This document shows positions 8,311 through 44,559 of a DNA stretch of 44,559 bases, piece after piece (the first letter of the stretch is position 1; each line of letters opens with the position of its first letter). Location: the sequence record NC_047769.1; one strand, 5' to 3'. The notes beneath the pieces were generated by a model. That model searched no databases. It had not been told where the DNA came from and saw nothing but the letters and a program-made list of their open reading frames with translations. The stretch comes from Escherichia phage AAPEc6. The position numbers were made by a program, and so were the translations under genes.

Positions 8311-8994
8311 ATGTATAACTTAGTGTTGAATGTAGGTGACTTTGTACGCAACATCAAGAAAGATTCAAGTCGCTATCTTTGCCGTGGTGTTGTAACCTTT
8401 GTAGGTGAGAACCTGTATTATGTAGAATATCGCAGTGGTGTTAAGCAATATTACCACAAGAAGACAGCACATAAATATCTTGAAAAGATTGTAGAGATAA
8501 ACAATCAATGTAAGTGCATACATGATGAGGTTTGCGATAAATGTGCTCGCCAGATGCTTAAGAATTTCCTAGCTCCTCTTTATTATGGTGCTGGCCCTCA
8601 AACACTAGCAGAGTACATGGCAGAAAAGAAAACCACACTCAAGAAAGAGCGTCGCAATGTAATCACTGGTAAGACTCAAAGTGAGATGATTAAGCAATGT
8701 GGCACTGCATTAGGTGTTACGCAGTTTAATACTCGTTCATTGGGTAAATCCACAGGGCAAGCTATGGTAAAGATTGGCGAAGCCATGATGCATCCAAATG
8801 TACCTGTACGAATCATGGATGTTGACCATGCAATCACAGAACACGGTACGCAACGACGTGTAATTAATAAGCATTTTGCCGACACTATAGAAGGTATTAT
8901 TCGTAAGCAAGAGTTGAAGGGTCTTCACATCTTAAATGGTGAAGAATTACTGTACCTACCTATCGTTACTGAAGAAACATACGTGAATATCTAA
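8311..8994 (+). CDS. Hypothetical protein with Cys cluster (CKCIHDEVCDKC), 228 aa
   Basis: ORF track 8305..8994 (TTG); ATG at 8311. Confidence 0.6.
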   Translation: MYNLVLNVGDFVRNIKKDSSRYLCRGVVTFVGENLYYVEYRSGVKQYYHKKTAHKYLEKIVEINNQCKCIHDEVCDKCARQMLKNFLAPLYYGAGPQTLAEYMAEKKTTLKKERRNVITGKTQSEMIKQCGTALGVTQFNTRSLGKSTGQAMVKIGEAMMHPNVPVRIMDVDHAITEHGTQRRVINKHFADTIEGIIRKQELKGLHILNGEELLYLPIVTEETYVNI

Positions 8995-9400: not shown

Positions 9401-9416
9401 GTCTCACGTGTGAGAC
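9401..9416 (+). repeat. 16-bp palindrome GTCTCACGTGTGAGAC (copy 4, CACGTG core)
   Basis: Read directly; flanks gggtt...cagcc extend the inverted repeat. Confidence 0.9.
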
Positions 9417-9541
9417 AGCCTTTCATCATATTGATTGGAGGTGCATTATGCCACGTGATTATGATTCTGATTGGGACTATTATGACTCAATGAATCCAAA
9501 ACCCGAACGTTCAGATGATTACTACGAAACAGAGGCAATGT

Positions 9542-12088
9542 ATGAAGACTATTGATTGGAAGAAGGAGGCAGAAGGTCGTATCCTCGTGATGGATGCGGA
9601 AGCTAAAGGACTCCTTGACGCCATCCGATATGGACACCGTGAAGATGTGCATATCATTTGCTGCATGGACTTGCTTACTACCGAGGAGTTTCTCTTCTTT
9701 GACCCGTATGAGATGCGTGACCCTGAAGCAAGAGAACTCCTGAAGGAATGGGAAGGTCATCAAGATGGAACCTTGGTTGACGGTGTTAACTTCCTGAAGC
9801 ACTGTGAGGCTATTGTGTCGCAGAACTTCCTAGGATATGACGGTCTTCTCTTTGAGAAAGCATTCCCTGATATTTGGAAAGGCTTTAACTATACCGAGAA
9901 GCGCGGCAAGGGCAGACTCCGTGCTGACCTGTGTCCGGTGCGAGTCATGGATACGCTGGTGATGAGTCGCCTGTTAAACCCCGATAGACGCCTTCCTCCG
10001 CAAGCATATGCCAAAGGTATGGGTAACGTCGCCCCTCACTCAATTGAGGCGCACGGCATCCGTATAGGCCGCTATAAACCGGAGAACGAGGACTGGTCTA
10101 AACTAACTGACCACATGGTTCACCGTGTACGTGAGGACGTGGCGATTGGTCGTGACTTGTTCCTCTGGCTCTTTAACGGGGAATGGATGGAGCACAAACG
10201 CCGTGGCGTGAATAAACGCACTGGCCTAGGTATTGAGACAGCTTTCCACATGGAGTCCATTGTGGCGCTGGAGATGAGCCGTCAGGCCGAGCGTGGATTC
10301 CGTCTGGATATAGATAAAGCATTAGCACGATGCGAGGAATTGGACGCTAAGATTGATGAGACAGTCGCAGCGTTCCGTCCGCACATGCCTATGCGTATCA
10401 AGTCTAAACCTTTTAAACCGGAAGAAAAGAATGAAGTATGCCAACGCGCAAATGAGTATGGAGCTAGCAACAATATACCTACTGTCCTTGACCCCTCACA
10501 CTTTCTTCATGTCGAGAGACGAGGAGATCGCAAGACAGTATGGAGTGTCACTACTAAGTCTGGTGATTGGTCGGCTAGCGTCAAGAAAGACTTTCCTCAC
10601 CTTAGAGGAAACCGTAATGACACGCCAAGTATCAAGTGGATTGGCGCTTACTCGCCTGTTACTTTCGAAGAGATTCCCTTGGGTAACAGGGATACAGTTA
10701 AGCAAGTGCTCTATGATTATGGATGGAAGGGTGTTGAATTTAATGATACCGAGCAAGCGCATCTCGATGAGTACGGAGTATTACCCAAGCCTTGGAGTGG
10801 GAAGATAAATGAAAAGTCCCTTACTTTATGGCAAGAAAGAGCCGCACGTGAAGGTAAAACAGTCCCTGATTGGTGCTTGGGTATCGCTGCATGGTACATA
10901 CTCGTATCCCGTCGTGGTCAGATCCTCAACCGTGGTGACGTTGAAGCCTTCGACCAGAAGGGGGTGTGGCCTTCGCAAGCTGGTATACGAAAGTGTCGCG
11001 GCCTTGTACCTGTAGCATTTAACAAGGAGTTAGGAATCAATGCGCAGCAATACTACGAAAGGTACGGATGCTGGCCTACGTCAGACAAGGATGACGGAGA
11101 ATGGCGTGTGCCAGCTATTGCTATTAGTATTGGAACTTCTACGTTCCGTATGCGTCATCGTAACGTGGTTAATATTCCTGCCCGTGGTTTGTATCCTTTA
11201 CGTGATTTATTCATAGCCGGTAAAGGTAAGCTAATCCTTGGTTGTGATGGTGCTGGTCTTGAACTACGTGTACTGTCTCACTTCATGAATGACCCTGAAT
11301 ACCAAGATATTGTACTGCATGGTGACATTCACACCCATAATCAAATGAAGGCTGGTCTTCCTAAGCGTGACATGGCGAAGACATTTATATATGCCTTCCT
11401 ATATGGGTCTGGTATAGCTAACCTTGCAGCAGTATGTGGTGTTACTGAGGAAGAAATGGAGGAAGTTGTGGCAAGATTTGAGGTTGAACTACCATCTCTT
11501 GCACGTCTTCGTGAGAATGTTATCGCACAAGGTAACAAGTTTGGCTACCTACAAGCACCTGATGGTCATTGGGGTCGCATCCGTATGTCTGGTGGTGAAC
11601 TTAAAGAACACACTATGCTTAACGTACTACTCCAGATGACTGGTTCTCTGTGTATGAAATACGCATTGGTCAGAGCGTTTGCAGTGATGCGCAAGGAAGG
11701 TGTGGCCTTAGATAGCATGGGAAACCCTTGCGGTATAGCTAACGTGCACGATGAAATCCAGATGGAAGTCCCTGAAGATGAGGTCTTGTATCTCAACTAC
11801 GACTTGCCTTTCACCTTAGAAGGGTTCGAAACAGAGAAGGCTGCTGTGAAAGCAGTGTTCGATGCAGAGGAGAAACGTGTTCATGTGGATTCTGAAGGAC
11901 GTATGTGGTCTGCTGCAAATCTCGTTAGTGTTGATGCTGATGCTGGTGTACTTCATTGCCAGCGTCGTTATCACCGTGCAGGGCATATCATTGCCGACGC
12001 AATGACCTGGGCGGGTCAGTACCTGAAGATGCGTTGTCCGATGGCAGGTGAGTATAAGATTGGTGCAAGTTGGAAGGAAACACACTGA
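9542..12088 (+). CDS. DNA polymerase (family A, T7 gp5-like)
   Basis: N-terminal exonuclease motif ILVMDAEA, motif A GCDGAGLELRVL, motif C NVHDEIQ; ORF track begins at 9515. Confidence 0.95.
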   Translation: MKTIDWKKEAEGRILVMDAEAKGLLDAIRYGHREDVHIICCMDLLTTEEFLFFDPYEMRDPEARELLKEWEGHQDGTLVDGVNFLKHCEAIVSQNFLGYDGLLFEKAFPDIWKGFNYTEKRGKGRLRADLCPVRVMDTLVMSRLLNPDRRLPPQAYAKGMGNVAPHSIEAHGIRIGRYKPENEDWSKLTDHMVHRVREDVAIGRDLFLWLFNGEWMEHKRRGVNKRTGLGIETAFHMESIVALEMSRQAERGFRLDIDKALARCEELDAKIDETVAAFRPHMPMRIKSKPFKPEEKNEVCQRANEYGASNNIPTVLDPSHFLHVERRGDRKTVWSVTTKSGDWSASVKKDFPHLRGNRNDTPSIKWIGAYSPVTFEEIPLGNRDTVKQVLYDYGWKGVEFNDTEQAHLDEYGVLPKPWSGKINEKSLTLWQERAAREGKTVPDWCLGIAAWYILVSRRGQILNRGDVEAFDQKGVWPSQAGIRKCRGLVPVAFNKELGINAQQYYERYGCWPTSDKDDGEWRVPAIAISIGTSTFRMRHRNVVNIPARGLYPLRDLFIAGKGKLILGCDGAGLELRVLSHFMNDPEYQDIVLHGDIHTHNQMKAGLPKRDMAKTFIYAFLYGSGIANLAAVCGVTEEEMEEVVARFEVELPSLARLRENVIAQGNKFGYLQAPDGHWGRIRMSGGELKEHTMLNVLLQMTGSLCMKYALVRAFAVMRKEGVALDSMGNPCGIANVHDEIQMEVPEDEVLYLNYDLPFTLEGFETEKAAVKAVFDAEEKRVHVDSEGRMWSAANLVSVDADAGVLHCQRRYHRAGHIIADAMTWAGQYLKMRCPMAGEYKIGASWKETH

Positions 12089-12204
12089 TGGACAGGTTTG
12101 ATATTGTTTGCCTATTCTCTACCTTCTTTCTTATATTCCTTATGCTTGCTTGCTATGGAAGTATACGATTAGATATACCTGATGAAGAGGAGGGTTACGA
12201 TTGA
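12088..12204 (+). CDS. Membrane miniprotein (38 aa, one TM segment, acidic C-terminus)
   Basis: TGATG stop-start overlap with the DNAP stop; hydrophobic core VCLFSTFFLIFLMLACY. Confidence 0.35.
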   Translation: MDRFDIVCLFSTFFLIFLMLACYGSIRLDIPDEEEGYD

Positions 12205-12302
12205 TGCAGGCATCTTTTATTATTCTTGGAGTCATATTATTTATGGTAGTATTCTGGGCTTTCTCTGGCATTGACCCAGATTGTGATGGTAACTACGACT
12301 GA
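12204..12302 (+). CDS. Membrane miniprotein (32 aa), apparent paralog of the preceding ORF
   Basis: TGATG overlap with the upstream miniprotein; hydrophobic core FIILGVILFMVVFWAF; similar acidic C-terminus. Confidence 0.35.
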   Translation: MQASFIILGVILFMVVFWAFSGIDPDCDGNYD

Positions 12303-12370
12303 GTTATACTCAAGGTCACTTACGAGTGGCCTTTATGAATAACTTATTCCTACTTATTTTGTCTAACATG

Positions 12371-12393
12371 ATTTACTGGACACTATAGAAGGA
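12371..12393 (+). promoter_or_regulatory. Phage promoter (ATTTACTGGACACTATAGAAGGA)
   Basis: Exact consensus; preceded by GTCTAACATG, a palindrome half-site relic. Confidence 0.8.
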
Positions 12394-12457: not shown

Positions 12458-12835
12458 ATGTCTATGGTAACTACTCTGGTATTCGTGGCTCAATACTTTC
12501 GTGGTCTTGCTAATAAGTTCAAGTCCAAGGCTATCAAAGCTATTGAGGCTCGCATCGAAGCAGTACAGGCAGAGCAAGTTAAAGTTGAAGAACATCGTAG
12601 TTCTCAAATGATTGACTGTCATAACCGCTACTATGCATCTCGTGATGAACTAAATGCACGTCAAGTCAAAGAGGTAGAAGATATGCTGGCACGTCACCAG
12701 CAAGAGCGTGACAGCCTGAAAGCTGAATTTGAAGAGAACAAGGCATCAATTGCTCTTGTACATCAAGCTGCATCTGACAGTCTGAAGAAAGAGATTGTTA
12801 TGCTGGAAATCGAACTGGATAACCTGACCAAATAA
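12458..12835 (+). CDS. Hypothetical protein (125 aa; N-terminal hydrophobic segment then coiled coil)
   Basis: ORF track; AGGAGA RBS. Confidence 0.55.
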   Translation: MSMVTTLVFVAQYFRGLANKFKSKAIKAIEARIEAVQAEQVKVEEHRSSQMIDCHNRYYASRDELNARQVKEVEDMLARHQQERDSLKAEFEENKASIALVHQAASDSLKKEIVMLEIELDNLTK

Positions 12836-13218: not shown

Positions 13219-14025
13219 ATGGCACGTGGTGATTTTGATTTTGGTGCTCAGGTTACTAAAGCTGAAGGTAAAGTATTTAAGAACCCTGAAGTTGGTGATC
13301 ATGAAGCAGTAATCTCTGGCATCATTCATGTTGGTTCCTTCCAAGATATCTTTAAGAAAGGTAATACCACTGAAGTTAAGAAGCCAGCAAACTTTGTTCT
13401 TGTTAAAATTATCCTGATGGGCGACGATGACAAGAATGAAGATGATTCTCGCATGGAACAGTGGATGGCTGTGCCATTGAAGTCTGGTGACAAGGCAACT
13501 CTTACTAAGTTCCTGAATGCAGTTGACCCTAAAGAATTGCTGGGTGGCTTCGATGATTTCATCGGTGAATGTCTGACTGCAACTATGGTTGGCTCTGGTG
13601 ATAAGAATGACGATGGCTCATTCAAGTATGTTAACTGGAAAGGATTTGGTGGTATGCCTGACAAGCTGAAGAAACTGGTCATTGCTCAGGTTGAAGAGGA
13701 AGGTCTGTCTATGACAGGTCACATTACCTTTGACAAGCTGACAAAAGAAATCCTTGATGACATCCCAGCTAACTTGGTGCGTCAATACTTCCTGAACGAG
13801 ACACCTCGTGGTAAGAACCTGTCTGTTGCTGGTTCTCATGTAGAAGCAATAATTAAAGCTGCTCGTGAAGAAGACCCAGAATGGAAGAAGGCTAAGAAGA
13901 AAGACGAGGAAGATGCTACCCCAGCTAATCGTAAACCTCTGGATACTGGTGAGTCTGTTCCGCAGGAAGTACCTGAAGCAGAAGATACGCCTGCACCGGA
14001 GATGGATGAGGACGCGGAATATTAA
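13219..14025 (+). CDS. Candidate ssDNA-binding protein (gp2.5-like; acidic C-terminus ...EMDEDAEY)
   Basis: 268 aa, beta-rich N-terminal region, long acidic tail ending in an aromatic residue; AGGAGA RBS; assignment by position and composition only. Confidence 0.5.
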   Translation: MARGDFDFGAQVTKAEGKVFKNPEVGDHEAVISGIIHVGSFQDIFKKGNTTEVKKPANFVLVKIILMGDDDKNEDDSRMEQWMAVPLKSGDKATLTKFLNAVDPKELLGGFDDFIGECLTATMVGSGDKNDDGSFKYVNWKGFGGMPDKLKKLVIAQVEEEGLSMTGHITFDKLTKEILDDIPANLVRQYFLNETPRGKNLSVAGSHVEAIIKAAREEDPEWKKAKKKDEEDATPANRKPLDTGESVPQEVPEAEDTPAPEMDEDAEY

Positions 14026-14358: not shown

Positions 14359-14730
14359 ATGTTCAAGATTGAAACTATCGTAAACCGTGTTGTTAAAGGT
14401 GCTGCTCTGGTATCCGTTGAGTCTTTCATTATCGTCGATGAAGCTGATCAACTGGTAGCTGGTACTAAGGCTTACGATACCCGTGAAGAAGCTCAGGCTA
14501 AGATTGACAGCATGGGTAACTTCGCTGCTGGTCTGGAGTTTGCTCGTGCTTGCTTCCCTGAGCAGGCTGACAAAGCCCAGATCGGTAAGGCTAACATCGT
14601 AGCTGAATATCTAGATTGGATTGCTGCTGGTAAACCAGTGAAAGAAGTTAAGGCTGCTGAAGAAGCTGAATCTACGGCAGTAGAAGTGTCTGCACCGGAA
14701 GCTCCGGTTAGCGAAGAGGAAGAGTTTTGA
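14359..14730 (+). CDS. Small acidic protein with SSB-like C-terminal tail (...SEEEEF), 123 aa
   Basis: Consensus promoter upstream, AAAAGGAGA RBS, terminator downstream; helix-prone composition; tail resembles SSB or gp2.5 C-terminal tails. Confidence 0.6.
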   Translation: MFKIETIVNRVVKGAALVSVESFIIVDEADQLVAGTKAYDTREEAQAKIDSMGNFAAGLEFARACFPEQADKAQIGKANIVAEYLDWIAAGKPVKEVKAAEEAESTAVEVSAPEAPVSEEEEF

Positions 14731-44119: not shown

Positions 44120-44559
44120 AGGTTAATATCTTAGTGTACACAAGGGCAGACCTAGGTTTGCTCTTAGTGTATTTACAATGGAGGTCTTATGTATATACCT
44201 ATGGAAGCAATAGTAGGTGGCCTATGCTTGTTGATAGGTTTCGTTATAGGCTTAATAGCAAATCCTTAGTCCTGTACAAGGATTAACCAAAGTCAAAATT
44301 TTGATATAGGCGTGTGTCAGCTCTCTCGCCCTCGCCCTCGCCGGGTTGTCCCCATAGGGTGGCCTGAGGGAATCCGTCTTCGACGGGCAGGGCTGAGGTA
44401 CTCATTGGCTAGTACAAGGGAGGCGGAGGGAACGCCTAGGGAGGCCTAGGAATGGCTTAGTGGTGGACAAGGTGATTACCTTAGTGAAGCCTCTTAGTGC
44501 ATTCCTGAGGCCATTCAGGGCGTTTATGAGGGATTGACAGGGTGGGCGTGGGTGGGCTA
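44120..44559 (+). repeat. Right-terminal region: CTTAGTG repeats (about 6 copies) flanking a GC-rich block (44310-44450)
   Basis: Same heptamer family as at the left end; local GC-rich stretch with CCCTCG repeats is atypical for this genome. Confidence 0.55.
44189..44269 (+). CDS. Hydrophobic miniprotein (26 aa, single predicted TM)
   Basis: GGAGG 4 nt upstream of the ATG; MYIPMEAIVGGLCLLIGFVIGLIANP. Confidence 0.25.
   Translation: MYIPMEAIVGGLCLLIGFVIGLIANP

Follow-up and report, generated by a model that had tools for sequence, protein, structure and literature searches.

Two small accessory genes behind the DNA polymerase gene of a K1-5-like phage encode predicted membrane peptides with conserved acidic tails

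Directly behind the DNA polymerase gene of Escherichia phage AAPEc6 (NC_047769.1) lie two very short reading frames, which raises the question of whether they are genuine genes and, if so, what peptides of this size could do for the phage. We analyzed the whole 44,559-nucleotide stretch (hereafter the window), which is the genome of a K1-5-like Vectrevirus. A preliminary description had reported frames of 38 and 32 aa joined to the polymerase gene and to each other by TGATG, and both junctions were confirmed in the sequence. It had also attributed the absence of these frames from the ORF track to a size cutoff. This is correct: a cutoff of 20 aa is needed for both, and there they are listed as ORFs of 44 and 33 aa that start from upstream TTG codons. 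The locus contains the following elements.

9515..12088, + strand: DNA polymerase gene, 857 aa as the longest ORF, with a stop codon (TGA, 12086-12088) that runs into the gp13.5 ATG.
12074..12078, + strand: Shine-Dalgarno-like AAGGA for gp13.5, within the final polymerase codons (W-K-E-T-H).
12088..12204, + strand: gp13.5 homologue (ORF1), 38 aa, MDRFDIVCLFSTFFLIFLMLACYGSIRLDIPDEEEGYD; N-terminal MDRFD, predicted hydrophobic helix at about residues 6-25, tail IRLDIPDEEEGYD.
12189..12193, + strand: Shine-Dalgarno GGAGG for gp14, within the gp13.5 E-E-G codons.
12204..12302, + strand: gp14 homologue (ORF2), corresponding to SP6 gp15, 32 aa, MQASFIILGVILFMVVFWAFSGIDPDCDGNYD; N-terminal MQAS, predicted hydrophobic helix at about residues 5-22, tail IDPDCDGNYD.

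For the long frame, the K1-5, LL11 and SP6 records give DNA polymerase as the product. The junction of this frame with ORF1 reads ACA CAC TGA TGG, with the ORF1 ATG at 12088-12090, and the ORF1 TGA (12202-12204) has one base in common with the ORF2 ATG (12204-12206). The TGATG found at both junctions takes the form TGATG, TAATG or TAGTG in relatives. Each Shine-Dalgarno element lies 9-10 nt upstream of its ATG, and the LL11 record carries ribosome binding site annotation at both positions. AAGGA is kept 5' of the first miniprotein gene in every carrier with a direct polymerase junction. Such a stop-start overlap directly 3' of the polymerase gene is found for 17 of the 18 distinct gp13.5 versions; the exception is NTNC80A, in which an HNH homing endonuclease gene, not the polymerase gene, directly precedes gp13.5 and GGAGG stands in place of AAGGA.

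Both genes are already catalogued as accessory genes of SP6/K1-5-type phages. They are annotated in K1-5, K1E, SP6 and LL11 and, for ORF1, in AAPEc6 itself, where HOR20_gp14 is an exact match to our sequence. The ORF1 product is 97% identical to gp13.5 of K1-5 and K1E (YP_654113, PK1Ep23), which is likewise 38 aa long and shares the position and the TGATG overlap with the polymerase gene; K1-5 has M26 where the window has I26, a single conservative substitution. The ORF2 product is 100% identical to K1-5 gp14 (YP_654114) and 87.5% identical to SP6 gp15 (NP_853575). In SP6, UAB_Phi78 and mutPK1A2, gp14/gp15 overlaps the polymerase stop directly because gp13.5 is absent. In PHROGs, gp13.5 matched phrog_15860 over its full length, with residues 1-38 aligned to all 38 profile positions (E 8.8e-30), and gp14 matched phrog_4539 with residues 1-28 aligned to positions 4-32 of a 32-position profile (E 3.7e-17). 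Both families carry only unknown-function labels. Thus, the finding is correct yet mostly ordinary, because databases already list both genes.

Searches beyond this group returned little. Pfam, NCBIfam and PADLOC gave no matches for either peptide apart from a meaningless FeoB-associated one (E 5.6), and PDB sequence searches with the miniproteins gave nothing significant. An exhaustive search with the single gp14 sequence among 1.84 billion representatives recovered its own cluster only, and a concatenated 70-aa query (gp13.5 plus gp14) recovered gp13.5 clusters only. With regard to a host origin, the 215-bp segment had no blastn match in 5,426 complete E. coli genomes. In the literature, the genes are absent or given as "unknown" without further discussion.

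Conservation of the frames in related phages had been proposed as a check, and the frames proved intact in 17 of the 18 distinct gp13.5 DNA versions and in 12 of 13 for gp14. The start codon, Shine-Dalgarno element and stop-start overlap are kept across phages of E. coli, Salmonella, Citrobacter and Raoultella. Pooled pN/pS was 0.23 in the annotated frame compared to 0.78-1.19 in the shifted frames, with 0.23 as the value for gp13.5 and gp14 alike. This places the miniproteins between the polymerase C-terminus (0.10-0.12) and the next gene (0.30-0.35). We conclude that gp13.5 and gp14 are genuine genes under purifying selection. A 30-aa ORF that spans the gp13.5/gp14 junction in an alternative frame (12182-12274) was dismissed as noncoding on the basis of a shifted-frame pN/pS of approximately 0.8-1.2.

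The two genes are also dispensable accessory cassettes. Among 21 polymerase-anchored IMG/VR loci (polymerase C-termini at least 75% identical), both genes were present in five, gp13.5 alone in one, gp14 alone in three and neither in 12. Decayed copies comprise a frameshifted gp14 remnant in one locus (L012), an E35stop allele in Mt1B1_P10 and a frameshift variant, P0037. Such frequent loss is also compatible with a merely marginal function.

In the middle-phase transcription unit of the DNA polymerase gene, gp13.5 and gp14 come last. The K1-5-type promoter core has 10 matches in the window compared to 0.2 expected, and the ends of the unit are marked by the following sites.

8879..8895, + strand: phage-RNAP promoter-like site CCGACACTATAGAAGGT, with three mismatches, the nearest upstream.
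12312..12333, + strand: hairpin AAGGTCACT-TACG-AGTGGCCTT, with an outer stem at about 12297-12349, at the 3' end of the unit.
12371..12393, + strand: phage RNAP promoter of the next unit, ATTTACTGGACACTATAGAAGGA, with a perfect core match and kept in relatives.

Judged by its position, the 8879..8895 site is the putative start of the DNAP-gp13.5-gp14 unit. The region around the hairpin (12296-12350) folds at -18.6 kcal/mol (z -5.4). In most variants, the hairpin directly follows the last gene, whichever gene that is, and it is missing in UAB_Phi78 and one Klebsiella phage. Variants of different gene content join in register to this common hairpin and the phage promoter. The probable role of the element is to terminate or pause the phage RNAP, or else to process or stabilize the RNA.

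The preliminary description had called the genes translationally coupled. The geometry of the overlaps permits this, and on that basis coupling through DNAP, gp13.5 and gp14 is possible. The remainder of the claim fared less well: each gene has its own Shine-Dalgarno element, and the two junction RNAs showed no start-site-sequestering structure relative to shuffled sequences (z +1.42 and +0.56). Neither gene thus has a downstream start that lacks a Shine-Dalgarno element or is buried in structure. Independent initiation is as likely as coupling, because a Shine-Dalgarno element is present in each gene and the junctions are unstructured.

What kind of peptides do these genes encode? A lone hydrophobic segment followed by a short acidic C-terminus had been noted in each, and Kyte-Doolittle profiles and AlphaFold (AF2) models agree on this architecture. 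Hydropathy maxima over 17 residues reach 2.74-2.75 in both peptides. AF2 places one helix in each (residues 3-22 of gp14 and 3-29 of gp13.5; pLDDT 88-96), followed by a non-helical, low-confidence acidic tail. We therefore describe gp13.5 and gp14 as predicted single-helix membrane peptides with a flexible acidic tail. The LL11 curators labeled both proteins "TMD N in C out". Charge rules are ambiguous on topology: gp14 lacks basic residues altogether, and the gp13.5 helix is flanked by a single Arg at either end, both of them variable.

In both peptides, conservation at the amino-acid level is highest in the tail, and the tail codons show synonymous changes. Variable columns number 2 of 9 in the gp13.5 tail and 1 of 9 in the gp14 tail, compared to 11 of 20 and 7 of 18 in the respective helices.

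12175..12201, + strand: gp13.5 acidic tail IPDEEEGYD (codons 30-38); five codons with synonymous changes only, two with non-synonymous changes (I/V, P/S).
12273..12299, + strand: gp14 tail DPDCDGNYD, a match to the metal-binding loop pattern Dx[DN]xDG(xxD).

Constraint on the gp13.5 tail reflects more than the Shine-Dalgarno element embedded in it, because the tail is conserved in genomes that lack gp14. The likeness of the two acidic ends had been taken to suggest a duplication, which the comparison does not bear out. BLASTP of gp13.5 against gp14 gave no alignment at E <= 100, and hhalign returned a probability of 1.3% over only the last eight columns (PD....YD). The genes belong to separate PHROG families with different distributions, and tandem paralogy was rejected for want of significant similarity between the products. 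The ...TAC GAY TGA ends common to both genes could instead be recombination junctions.

The new detail at this locus is that the gp14 tail fits, as a sequence, the pattern of calcium-binding Dx[DN]xDG loops. Across 10 distinct proteins, no variation occurs at D24, P25, D26, D28, G29, N30, Y31 or D32, such that the family tail is DPD[CY]DGNYD throughout; three codons vary synonymously, and the sole amino-acid change is C/Y at a non-ligand x position. In the six-frame translation of the window (89,114 residues), the tail is the only full match to Dx[DN]xDG(xxD), and the gp13.5 tail lies outside the Dx[DN]xDG motif. Ca binding by Dx[DN]xDG is reported from at least 12 contexts that are unrelated to one another, most of them extracytoplasmic (PMC3123361). 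The gp14 tail aligns with four lanmodulin EF loops at a non-significant E value (0.77). It matches positions 1-9 of such loops (for example, DPDKDGTID), including the Pro at position 2 found in all four lanmodulin loops. A canonical EF-hand was not recovered for gp14, with no Pfam EF-hand match and PDB matches at E 0.77-1.0. Unlike an EF-hand, gp14 has no position-12 Glu, exiting helix or helix-loop-helix; its loop is the extreme C-terminus and ends at position 9. Two synthetic peptides, SGIDPDCDGNYD and RLDIPDEEEGYD, are named for the metal-binding question.

The best explanation as a whole, to which we give somewhat less than an even chance, is that gp13.5 and gp14 act as small modulators in the inner membrane, with a benefit that is conditional and specific to the host. 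What we infer in this scheme is the insertion of the two peptides into the membrane, their topology and coupling, the binding of metal, and both target and benefit. Ribosomes ending the upstream gene would re-initiate at UGAUG, or ribosomes would bind the Shine-Dalgarno element embedded in the upstream coding sequence. The hydrophobic helix would then anchor each 32-38 residue peptide in the inner membrane, most likely N-in/C-out with the tail facing the periplasm, and specificity would sit in the 9-13 residue acidic tail, not in the helix. In gp14, DPDCDGNYD could act like other Dx[DN]xDG loops and take up a divalent cation. The peptides would bind and modulate a host envelope or inner-membrane component, like MgrB, MgtS, AcrZ and PmrR, and the advantage would be conditional and dependent on the host strain, not essential. 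MgrB, MgtS, AcrZ, PmrR, KdpF and CydX are proteins of approximately 30-50 aa with one helix that act by binding a larger membrane protein. The phage miniproteins resemble them in size and in the single helix, but without a sequence relationship (NCBIfam and Pfam; at the DNA level, in 5,426 E. coli genomes), so that the analogy is one of action mode only.

Several other readings were weighed against modulation. The peptides could serve superinfection exclusion, which the preliminary description had suggested along with host membrane targeting, or inter-phage competition. At the inner membrane, they would keep the genome of a second phage from entering or that phage from developing, as T4 Imm and Sp and P22 SieA do. 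The predicted membrane-anchored architecture would suit such a role, as would the sporadic presence among near-identical genomes that is typical of competition genes, and membership of a middle-phase unit implies expression before lysis. However, middle-phase expression is late for an entry block given the short latent period, and PHROGs, PADLOC, NCBIfam and Pfam revealed no similarity to known exclusion proteins. T4 Imm and Sp and P22 SieA are likewise phage-encoded inner-membrane or periplasmic proteins of the infected or lysogenic cell, but they are much larger than the miniproteins and share no sequence similarity with them. To our knowledge, exclusion by peptides of 30-40 aa is undescribed in the T7/SP6 group, and we know of no exclusion phenotype in SP6-like phages. 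We consider exclusion unlikely. A replisome tether, in which cytoplasmic, acidic, Tyr-containing tails would bind the polymerase or some other component of the replisome and thereby fix replication at the membrane, appears improbable. It draws on the adjacency to the polymerase gene, where possible coupling would co-localize synthesis, on the conserved aromatic residue in the acidic tails, and on two neighboring window proteins that end in T7 style with acidic residues and a terminal aromatic (...DEDAEY and ...SEEEEF). The phi29 membrane protein p16.7, an early or middle product, has a link to replication, and the acidic C-tails of T7 gp2.5 and gp4 dock on the polymerase; the terminal position of the aromatic residue matters in gp2.5. 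These systems offer a conceptual parallel without homology, but the miniprotein tails end in -Y-D with the aromatic residue penultimate, unlike T7-type docking tails. In addition, the LL11 curators predict C-out, which would put the tail outside the cytoplasm. Both genes are dispensable and are missing in over half of the close relatives with the same polymerase, the HNH gene separates gp13.5 from the polymerase gene in NTNC80A, and the gp14 tail resembles a metal loop more than a polymerase-binding tail.

Just as improbable, in our estimate, is that the peptides perturb the membrane in the manner of type I toxins or of holins and antiholins, tuning membrane potential, host shut-off or lysis timing. 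TisB/Ibs/Ldr-type and minimal lysis peptides are of comparable size with a single hydrophobic helix, which gp13.5 and gp14 resemble in both respects, and dispensability fits this role as well. Against it, the helices are hydrophobic all round and lack a polar face, the tail is conserved more than the helix (the reverse of pore formers), and depolarization during replication would harm the phage. The lysis cassette also lies at a distance of more than 20 kb, with the LL11 holin, endolysin and spanin genes at 36-40 kb, and on this genomic position we rejected a role as holin or in lysis. The PHROG label is not lysis either. Finally, the frames could be functionless or tolerated hydrophobic frames in T-rich DNA with a structural role only, as a hairpin spacer or polymerase termination context. 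Clean loss is frequent, nonsense or frameshift alleles occur occasionally and homologues outside the phage group were not found, all of which would suit tolerated frames. However, a pN/pS of 0.23 against approximately 1 in shifted frames, invariant tails that vary only synonymously, and a start codon, Shine-Dalgarno element and overlap conserved across phages of four host genera make this reading very improbable.

A bolder version of the modulator proposal takes gp14 to be a minimal membrane-anchored metal-binding peptide, in which a single transmembrane helix would carry a nine-residue, lanmodulin-like loop (DPDCDGNYD-COOH) on its periplasmic side. While the phage DNA replicates, the cation-loaded acidic tip of gp14 would contact a target in the host envelope, jointly with gp13.5 and its different tail. 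We regard this version as unlikely. If true, gp14 would place Dx[DN]xDG in a new, very small structural context and would be a phage host-takeover factor of a new type.

Genome annotation is little affected by these results, as the genes have been in GenBank/RefSeq since the K1-5, K1E and SP6 genomes and have PHROG families. The conservation of tail over helix and the calcium-loop fit of gp14 provide a concrete hypothesis that can be tested cheaply. The occurrence of both, either or neither gene in near-identical therapy and biocontrol phages is a convenient experimental system, in which isogenic comparisons could reveal what a membrane peptide of 32-38 aa adds to lytic infection. Small hydrophobic frames are also found behind the polymerase gene in a distant clade (L036-L041), where two unrelated ORFs of 28-32 aa with Shine-Dalgarno elements occupy this position. 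The first of these changes frame between members and there are approximately three distinct sequences; this positional analogy is only suggestive.

On re-reading the sequence, the preliminary description of two small ORFs directly behind the DNA polymerase gene (DNAP), joined to it and to each other by stop-start overlaps, proved accurate to the base, confirming the observation. We refer to the ORFs as gp13.5 and gp14 after their homologues. The features of the region are as follows.

9515-12088, + strand: DNA polymerase ORF; stop codon TGA at 12086-12088, its A shared with the ATG at 12088
12074-12078, + strand: Shine-Dalgarno (SD)-like AAGGA of gp13.5, 9-10 nt 5' of the ATG
12088-12204, + strand: gp13.5 ORF, 38 codons, product MDRFDIVCLFSTFFLIFLMLACYGSIRLDIPDEEEGYD; TGA at 12202-12204, its A shared with the gp14 ATG
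12189-12193, + strand: SD-like GGAGG of gp14, 9-10 nt 5' of the ATG
12204-12302, + strand: gp14 ORF, 32 codons, product MQASFIILGVILFMVVFWAFSGIDPDCDGNYD
12371-12393, + strand: K1-5-type phage promoter, perfect match, 3' of the hairpin GTTATACTCAAGGTCACTTACGAGTGGCCTT

The miniprotein region is 98-99% identical to that of Escherichia phages ACG-C91 and K1-5, both in Vectrevirus (Molineuxvirinae, Autographiviridae); the AAPEc6 genome announcement is PMC5543629. Both miniproteins are already known as annotated hypothetical genes. They are genes 13.5 and 14 in K1-5 and likewise in K1E, and the gp14 homologue is annotated gp15 in SP6 and listed for UAB_Phi78 orf21 as "Unknown, Gp15 [SP6]". The exact 38-residue gp13.5 product is deposited under the name "hypothetical protein HOR20_gp14 [Escherichia phage AAPEc6]", and the Center for Phage Technology annotation of LL11 gives both genes ribosome binding sites and the label "TMD N in C out". 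The products match phrog_15860 (gp13.5, E = 8.8e-30) and phrog_4539 (gp14, E = 3.7e-17), both families of unknown function. Searches of Pfam, NCBIfam and PADLOC with both products found nothing similar, and the literature searched assigned neither gene a function. To these records we add a selection test, conservation centered on the tails, in-register cassette loss and a Dx[DN]xDG-like gp14 tail.

Both genes are confined to phages in the searches made, with no DNA-level counterpart in 5,426 complete E. coli genomes. The 66 gp13.5 records come only from Vectrevirus-type phages of E. coli, Citrobacter, Raoultella and K. aerogenes, and form 7 clusters at 90% identity among 5.8 billion proteins. 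The gp14 range (67 records) additionally takes in the Salmonella Zindervirus group, and corresponds to a single 50%-identity cluster among 1.84 billion representatives. A 90%-identity cluster containing gp13.5 also lists two NhaA Na+/H+ antiporter records (P0006 and P0007; 437 and 465 aa), which is probably a clustering artefact of a short hydrophobic match.

Conservation in relatives had been named as a check on the two reading frames, and we examined it in 60 loci, drawn from phages in GenBank and from IMG/VR contigs with the DNAP C-terminus as anchor. The frame is intact in all but one distinct DNA version of each gene (17 of 18 for gp13.5 and 12 of 13 for gp14), and nearly all versions keep the SD and a stop-start overlap (TGATG, TAATG or TAGTG). 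Pairwise comparisons, pooled, give pN/pS of 0.23 for either gene in the annotated frame, compared with 0.78-0.81 and 1.11-1.19 in the shifted frames; the final 100 codons of DNAP give 0.10-0.12, and the gene that follows gp14 gives 0.30-0.35. The miniprotein genes are under purifying selection that is normal for a phage accessory protein. A 30-codon alternative-frame ORF spanning the gp13.5/gp14 junction was ruled out as coding by the shifted-frame values.

Translational coupling is plausible from the arrangement of the genes, given that the overlap geometry of both junctions would permit termination-reinitiation. Against it, gp13.5 and gp14 each have their own SD, the junctions show no more structure as RNA than their shuffled counterparts do (z = +1.4 and +0.6), and gp13.5 of phage NTNC80A overlaps an inserted HNH gene rather than DNAP. 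Any coupling would not be bound to the polymerase itself. The preliminary description also suggested duplication, and this part of its interpretation is not supported, while the architecture and possible coupling stand. BLASTP produced no alignment between the two peptides, profile-profile comparison aligned only PD....YD with a probability of 1.3%, and the two genes differ in distribution; shared ancestry, which could go unseen in peptides this short, is not supported by this evidence.

The two products share one plan: 4-5 N-terminal residues lead into a single, strongly hydrophobic segment (Kyte-Doolittle about 2.75 in a 17-residue span), and a short acidic tail closes the chain. AlphaFold models the segment as a single helix (gp13.5 residues 3-29, gp14 residues 3-22; pLDDT 88-96) and both tails as non-helical (pLDDT around 56-61), in keeping with the architecture first proposed. 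In gp13.5, 11 of 20 helix columns vary, versus 2 of 9 in the tail; the corresponding values for gp14 are 7/18 and 1/9. This pattern is the reverse of that of a simple membrane anchor. Synonymous changes occur in the tail codons of both genes, five in gp13.5 and three in gp14, and EEEGYD is kept even in genomes without gp14, indicating that the constraint lies on the gp13.5 tail peptide and not on the embedded SD alone.

The gp14 tail, D24-P-D-C-D-G-N-Y-D32, fits Dx[DN]xDG(xxD), a pattern with a single full occurrence in the six-frame translation of the window (89,114 residues). Across ten distinct proteins no motif residue changes, the sole substitution being C/Y at a non-ligand x position. 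Dx[DN]xDG is a linear motif that binds Ca2+ in at least 12 unrelated, mostly extracytoplasmic contexts (Rigden et al., PMC3123361). The best PDB sequence hits, lanmodulin 6mi5 (E = 0.77) and the EF-hand protein 8fns (E = 1.0), are not significant, and in these hits the tail aligns to each of the four loops of either protein (DPDKDGTID and similar). Unlike a true EF-hand, gp14 ends at loop position 9, short of a Glu at position 12 and of an exiting helix, and we rejected membership in the EF-hand family. Metal binding by the gp14 tail is a hypothesis suggested by this motif, from which the gp13.5 tail, DIPDEEEGYD, departs.

Close relatives carry both genes, gp14 only (SP6, UAB_Phi78, mutPK1A2), gp13.5 only (CrRp3, KMB14, LF31P3, Raoultella P3a, NTNC80A) or neither. 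In an unbiased, DNAP-anchored IMG/VR sample with DNAP C-termini at least 75% identical, 5 loci had both, 1 had gp13.5 only, 3 had gp14 only and 12 had neither. DNAP, gp13.5 and gp14 share the end ...AC(G)AYTGA, and the last stop, whichever gene supplies it, joins directly to GTTATACTCAAGGTCACTTACGAGTGGCCTT, a conserved hairpin (-18.6 kcal/mol, z = -5.4), so that the variants are in register. Decay is also evident: one locus (L012) has a frameshifted gp14 remnant behind a DNAP C-terminus 100% identical to that of the window, Mt1B1_P10 gp13.5 has E35stop, and protein record P0037 is a frameshifted 61-aa gp13.5 variant. Together, the presence/absence variants and decay intermediates indicate that the genes are dispensable for the basic lytic cycle, repeatedly lost, and selected while present.

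The best-supported reading is that gp13.5 and gp14 are accessory single-pass inner-membrane miniproteins that owe their specificity to an exposed, short acidic tail. By binding a component of the host envelope or inner membrane, they would confer a conditional, host-dependent benefit, and the gp14 tail may carry a divalent cation. MgrB, MgtS, AcrZ and PmrR are bacterial small membrane regulators, to which we liken the miniproteins by analogy and not homology. An N-in/C-out topology is predicted from the LL11 curators' prediction and the ease with which short acidic tails are generally translocated; for both peptides, the charge rules give an ambiguous answer.

Superinfection exclusion by such membrane peptides is an alternative to which we give little weight. 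A tether holding the replisome from the cytoplasmic face of the membrane would place the tails inside the cell, and we consider this role improbable. The hydrophobic segments could also suggest membrane perturbation or control of lysis timing, a similarly improbable role: the unit sits in the middle, DNA metabolism region, and a lysis function is disfavored by the distance of more than 20 kb to the holin, endolysin and spanin genes on its 3' side. Repeated loss might be read as non-function, which is the least likely of these in view of the purifying-selection signal.

Other genes occupy the post-DNAP slot in several relatives. A 177-194 aa ORF with GGAVRD...PKDYD usually replaces the miniproteins (about 30-620 nt past the DNAP stop in loci L019-L021, L026 and L034, and about 300-840 nt in L025) and stands alongside them in KMB47 (locus L008, 1263-1820); its motif resembles the head domain found in nucleotidyltransferases of the CCA-adding or poly(A)-polymerase type. 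Immediately behind DNAP, NTNC80A (L010, 1086-1617), L024 and L029 have an inserted HNH homing-endonuclease gene. The copy in NTNC80A shares 14 nt with the start of gp13.5, and the DNAP C-terminus of this phage, at just 54% identity to that of the window, suggests a recombinant end. A distant relative, L033, has a 47-aa Cys-rich ORF, MQMTSPCVGLCQVEDGVCQGCDRTLEEIQNWAYMTDDEREEIMERLL, at +87 to +230 nt past the DNAP stop. In an uncultivated clade (L036-L041; DNAP C-terminus sharing about 55% identity with that of the window; nearest by DNA to Pectobacterium PP1, Vibrio Vc1 and Pantoea Nifs112), +10 to +204 nt past the stop hold a pair of SD-preceded, 28-32 aa hydrophobic ORFs. These are unrelated in sequence to gp13.5/gp14 and lack acidic tails, and the frame of the first differs between members; the pair may reflect a recurrent theme of membrane mini-ORFs behind the polymerase, or coincidence.

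The window holds further small ORFs, all on the + strand. At 44189-44269, intergenic and near the right genome end, a GGAGG SD precedes a 26-aa hydrophobic ORF, MYIPMEAIVGGLCLLIGFVIGLIANP, for which tblastn shows conservation in 24 phage records, SP6 gene 49/52 among them, and which several relatives leave unannotated; by sequence, it is a predicted third membrane miniprotein of this phage group. Just 5' of DNAP, a 27-aa GTG-start hydrophobic ORF (9410-9493, MRQPFIILIGGALCHVIMILIGTIMTQ) has tblastn matches in 65 records and is overlapped by a 35-aa, extremely acidic, aromatic ORF (9448-9555, MPRDYDSDWDYYDS...YEDY) that enters the DNAP start. Relatives have an annotated "hypothetical protein" at this place, to which one of the two frames may correspond. 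The next gene after gp14 (12458-12835, phrog_7450), an SP6 gp17 homologue, is commonly labeled "polysaccharide chain length determinant protein", which looks like a propagated annotation because the product has only 125 aa and appears mostly coiled-coil. Two neighboring genes of unknown function, at 13219-14025 (phrog_862, ...DEDAEY) and 14359-14730 (phrog_4429, ...SEEEEF), encode acidic tails with a terminal aromatic residue, in the style of the T7 gp2.5 and gp4 C-termini that dock on DNA polymerase.
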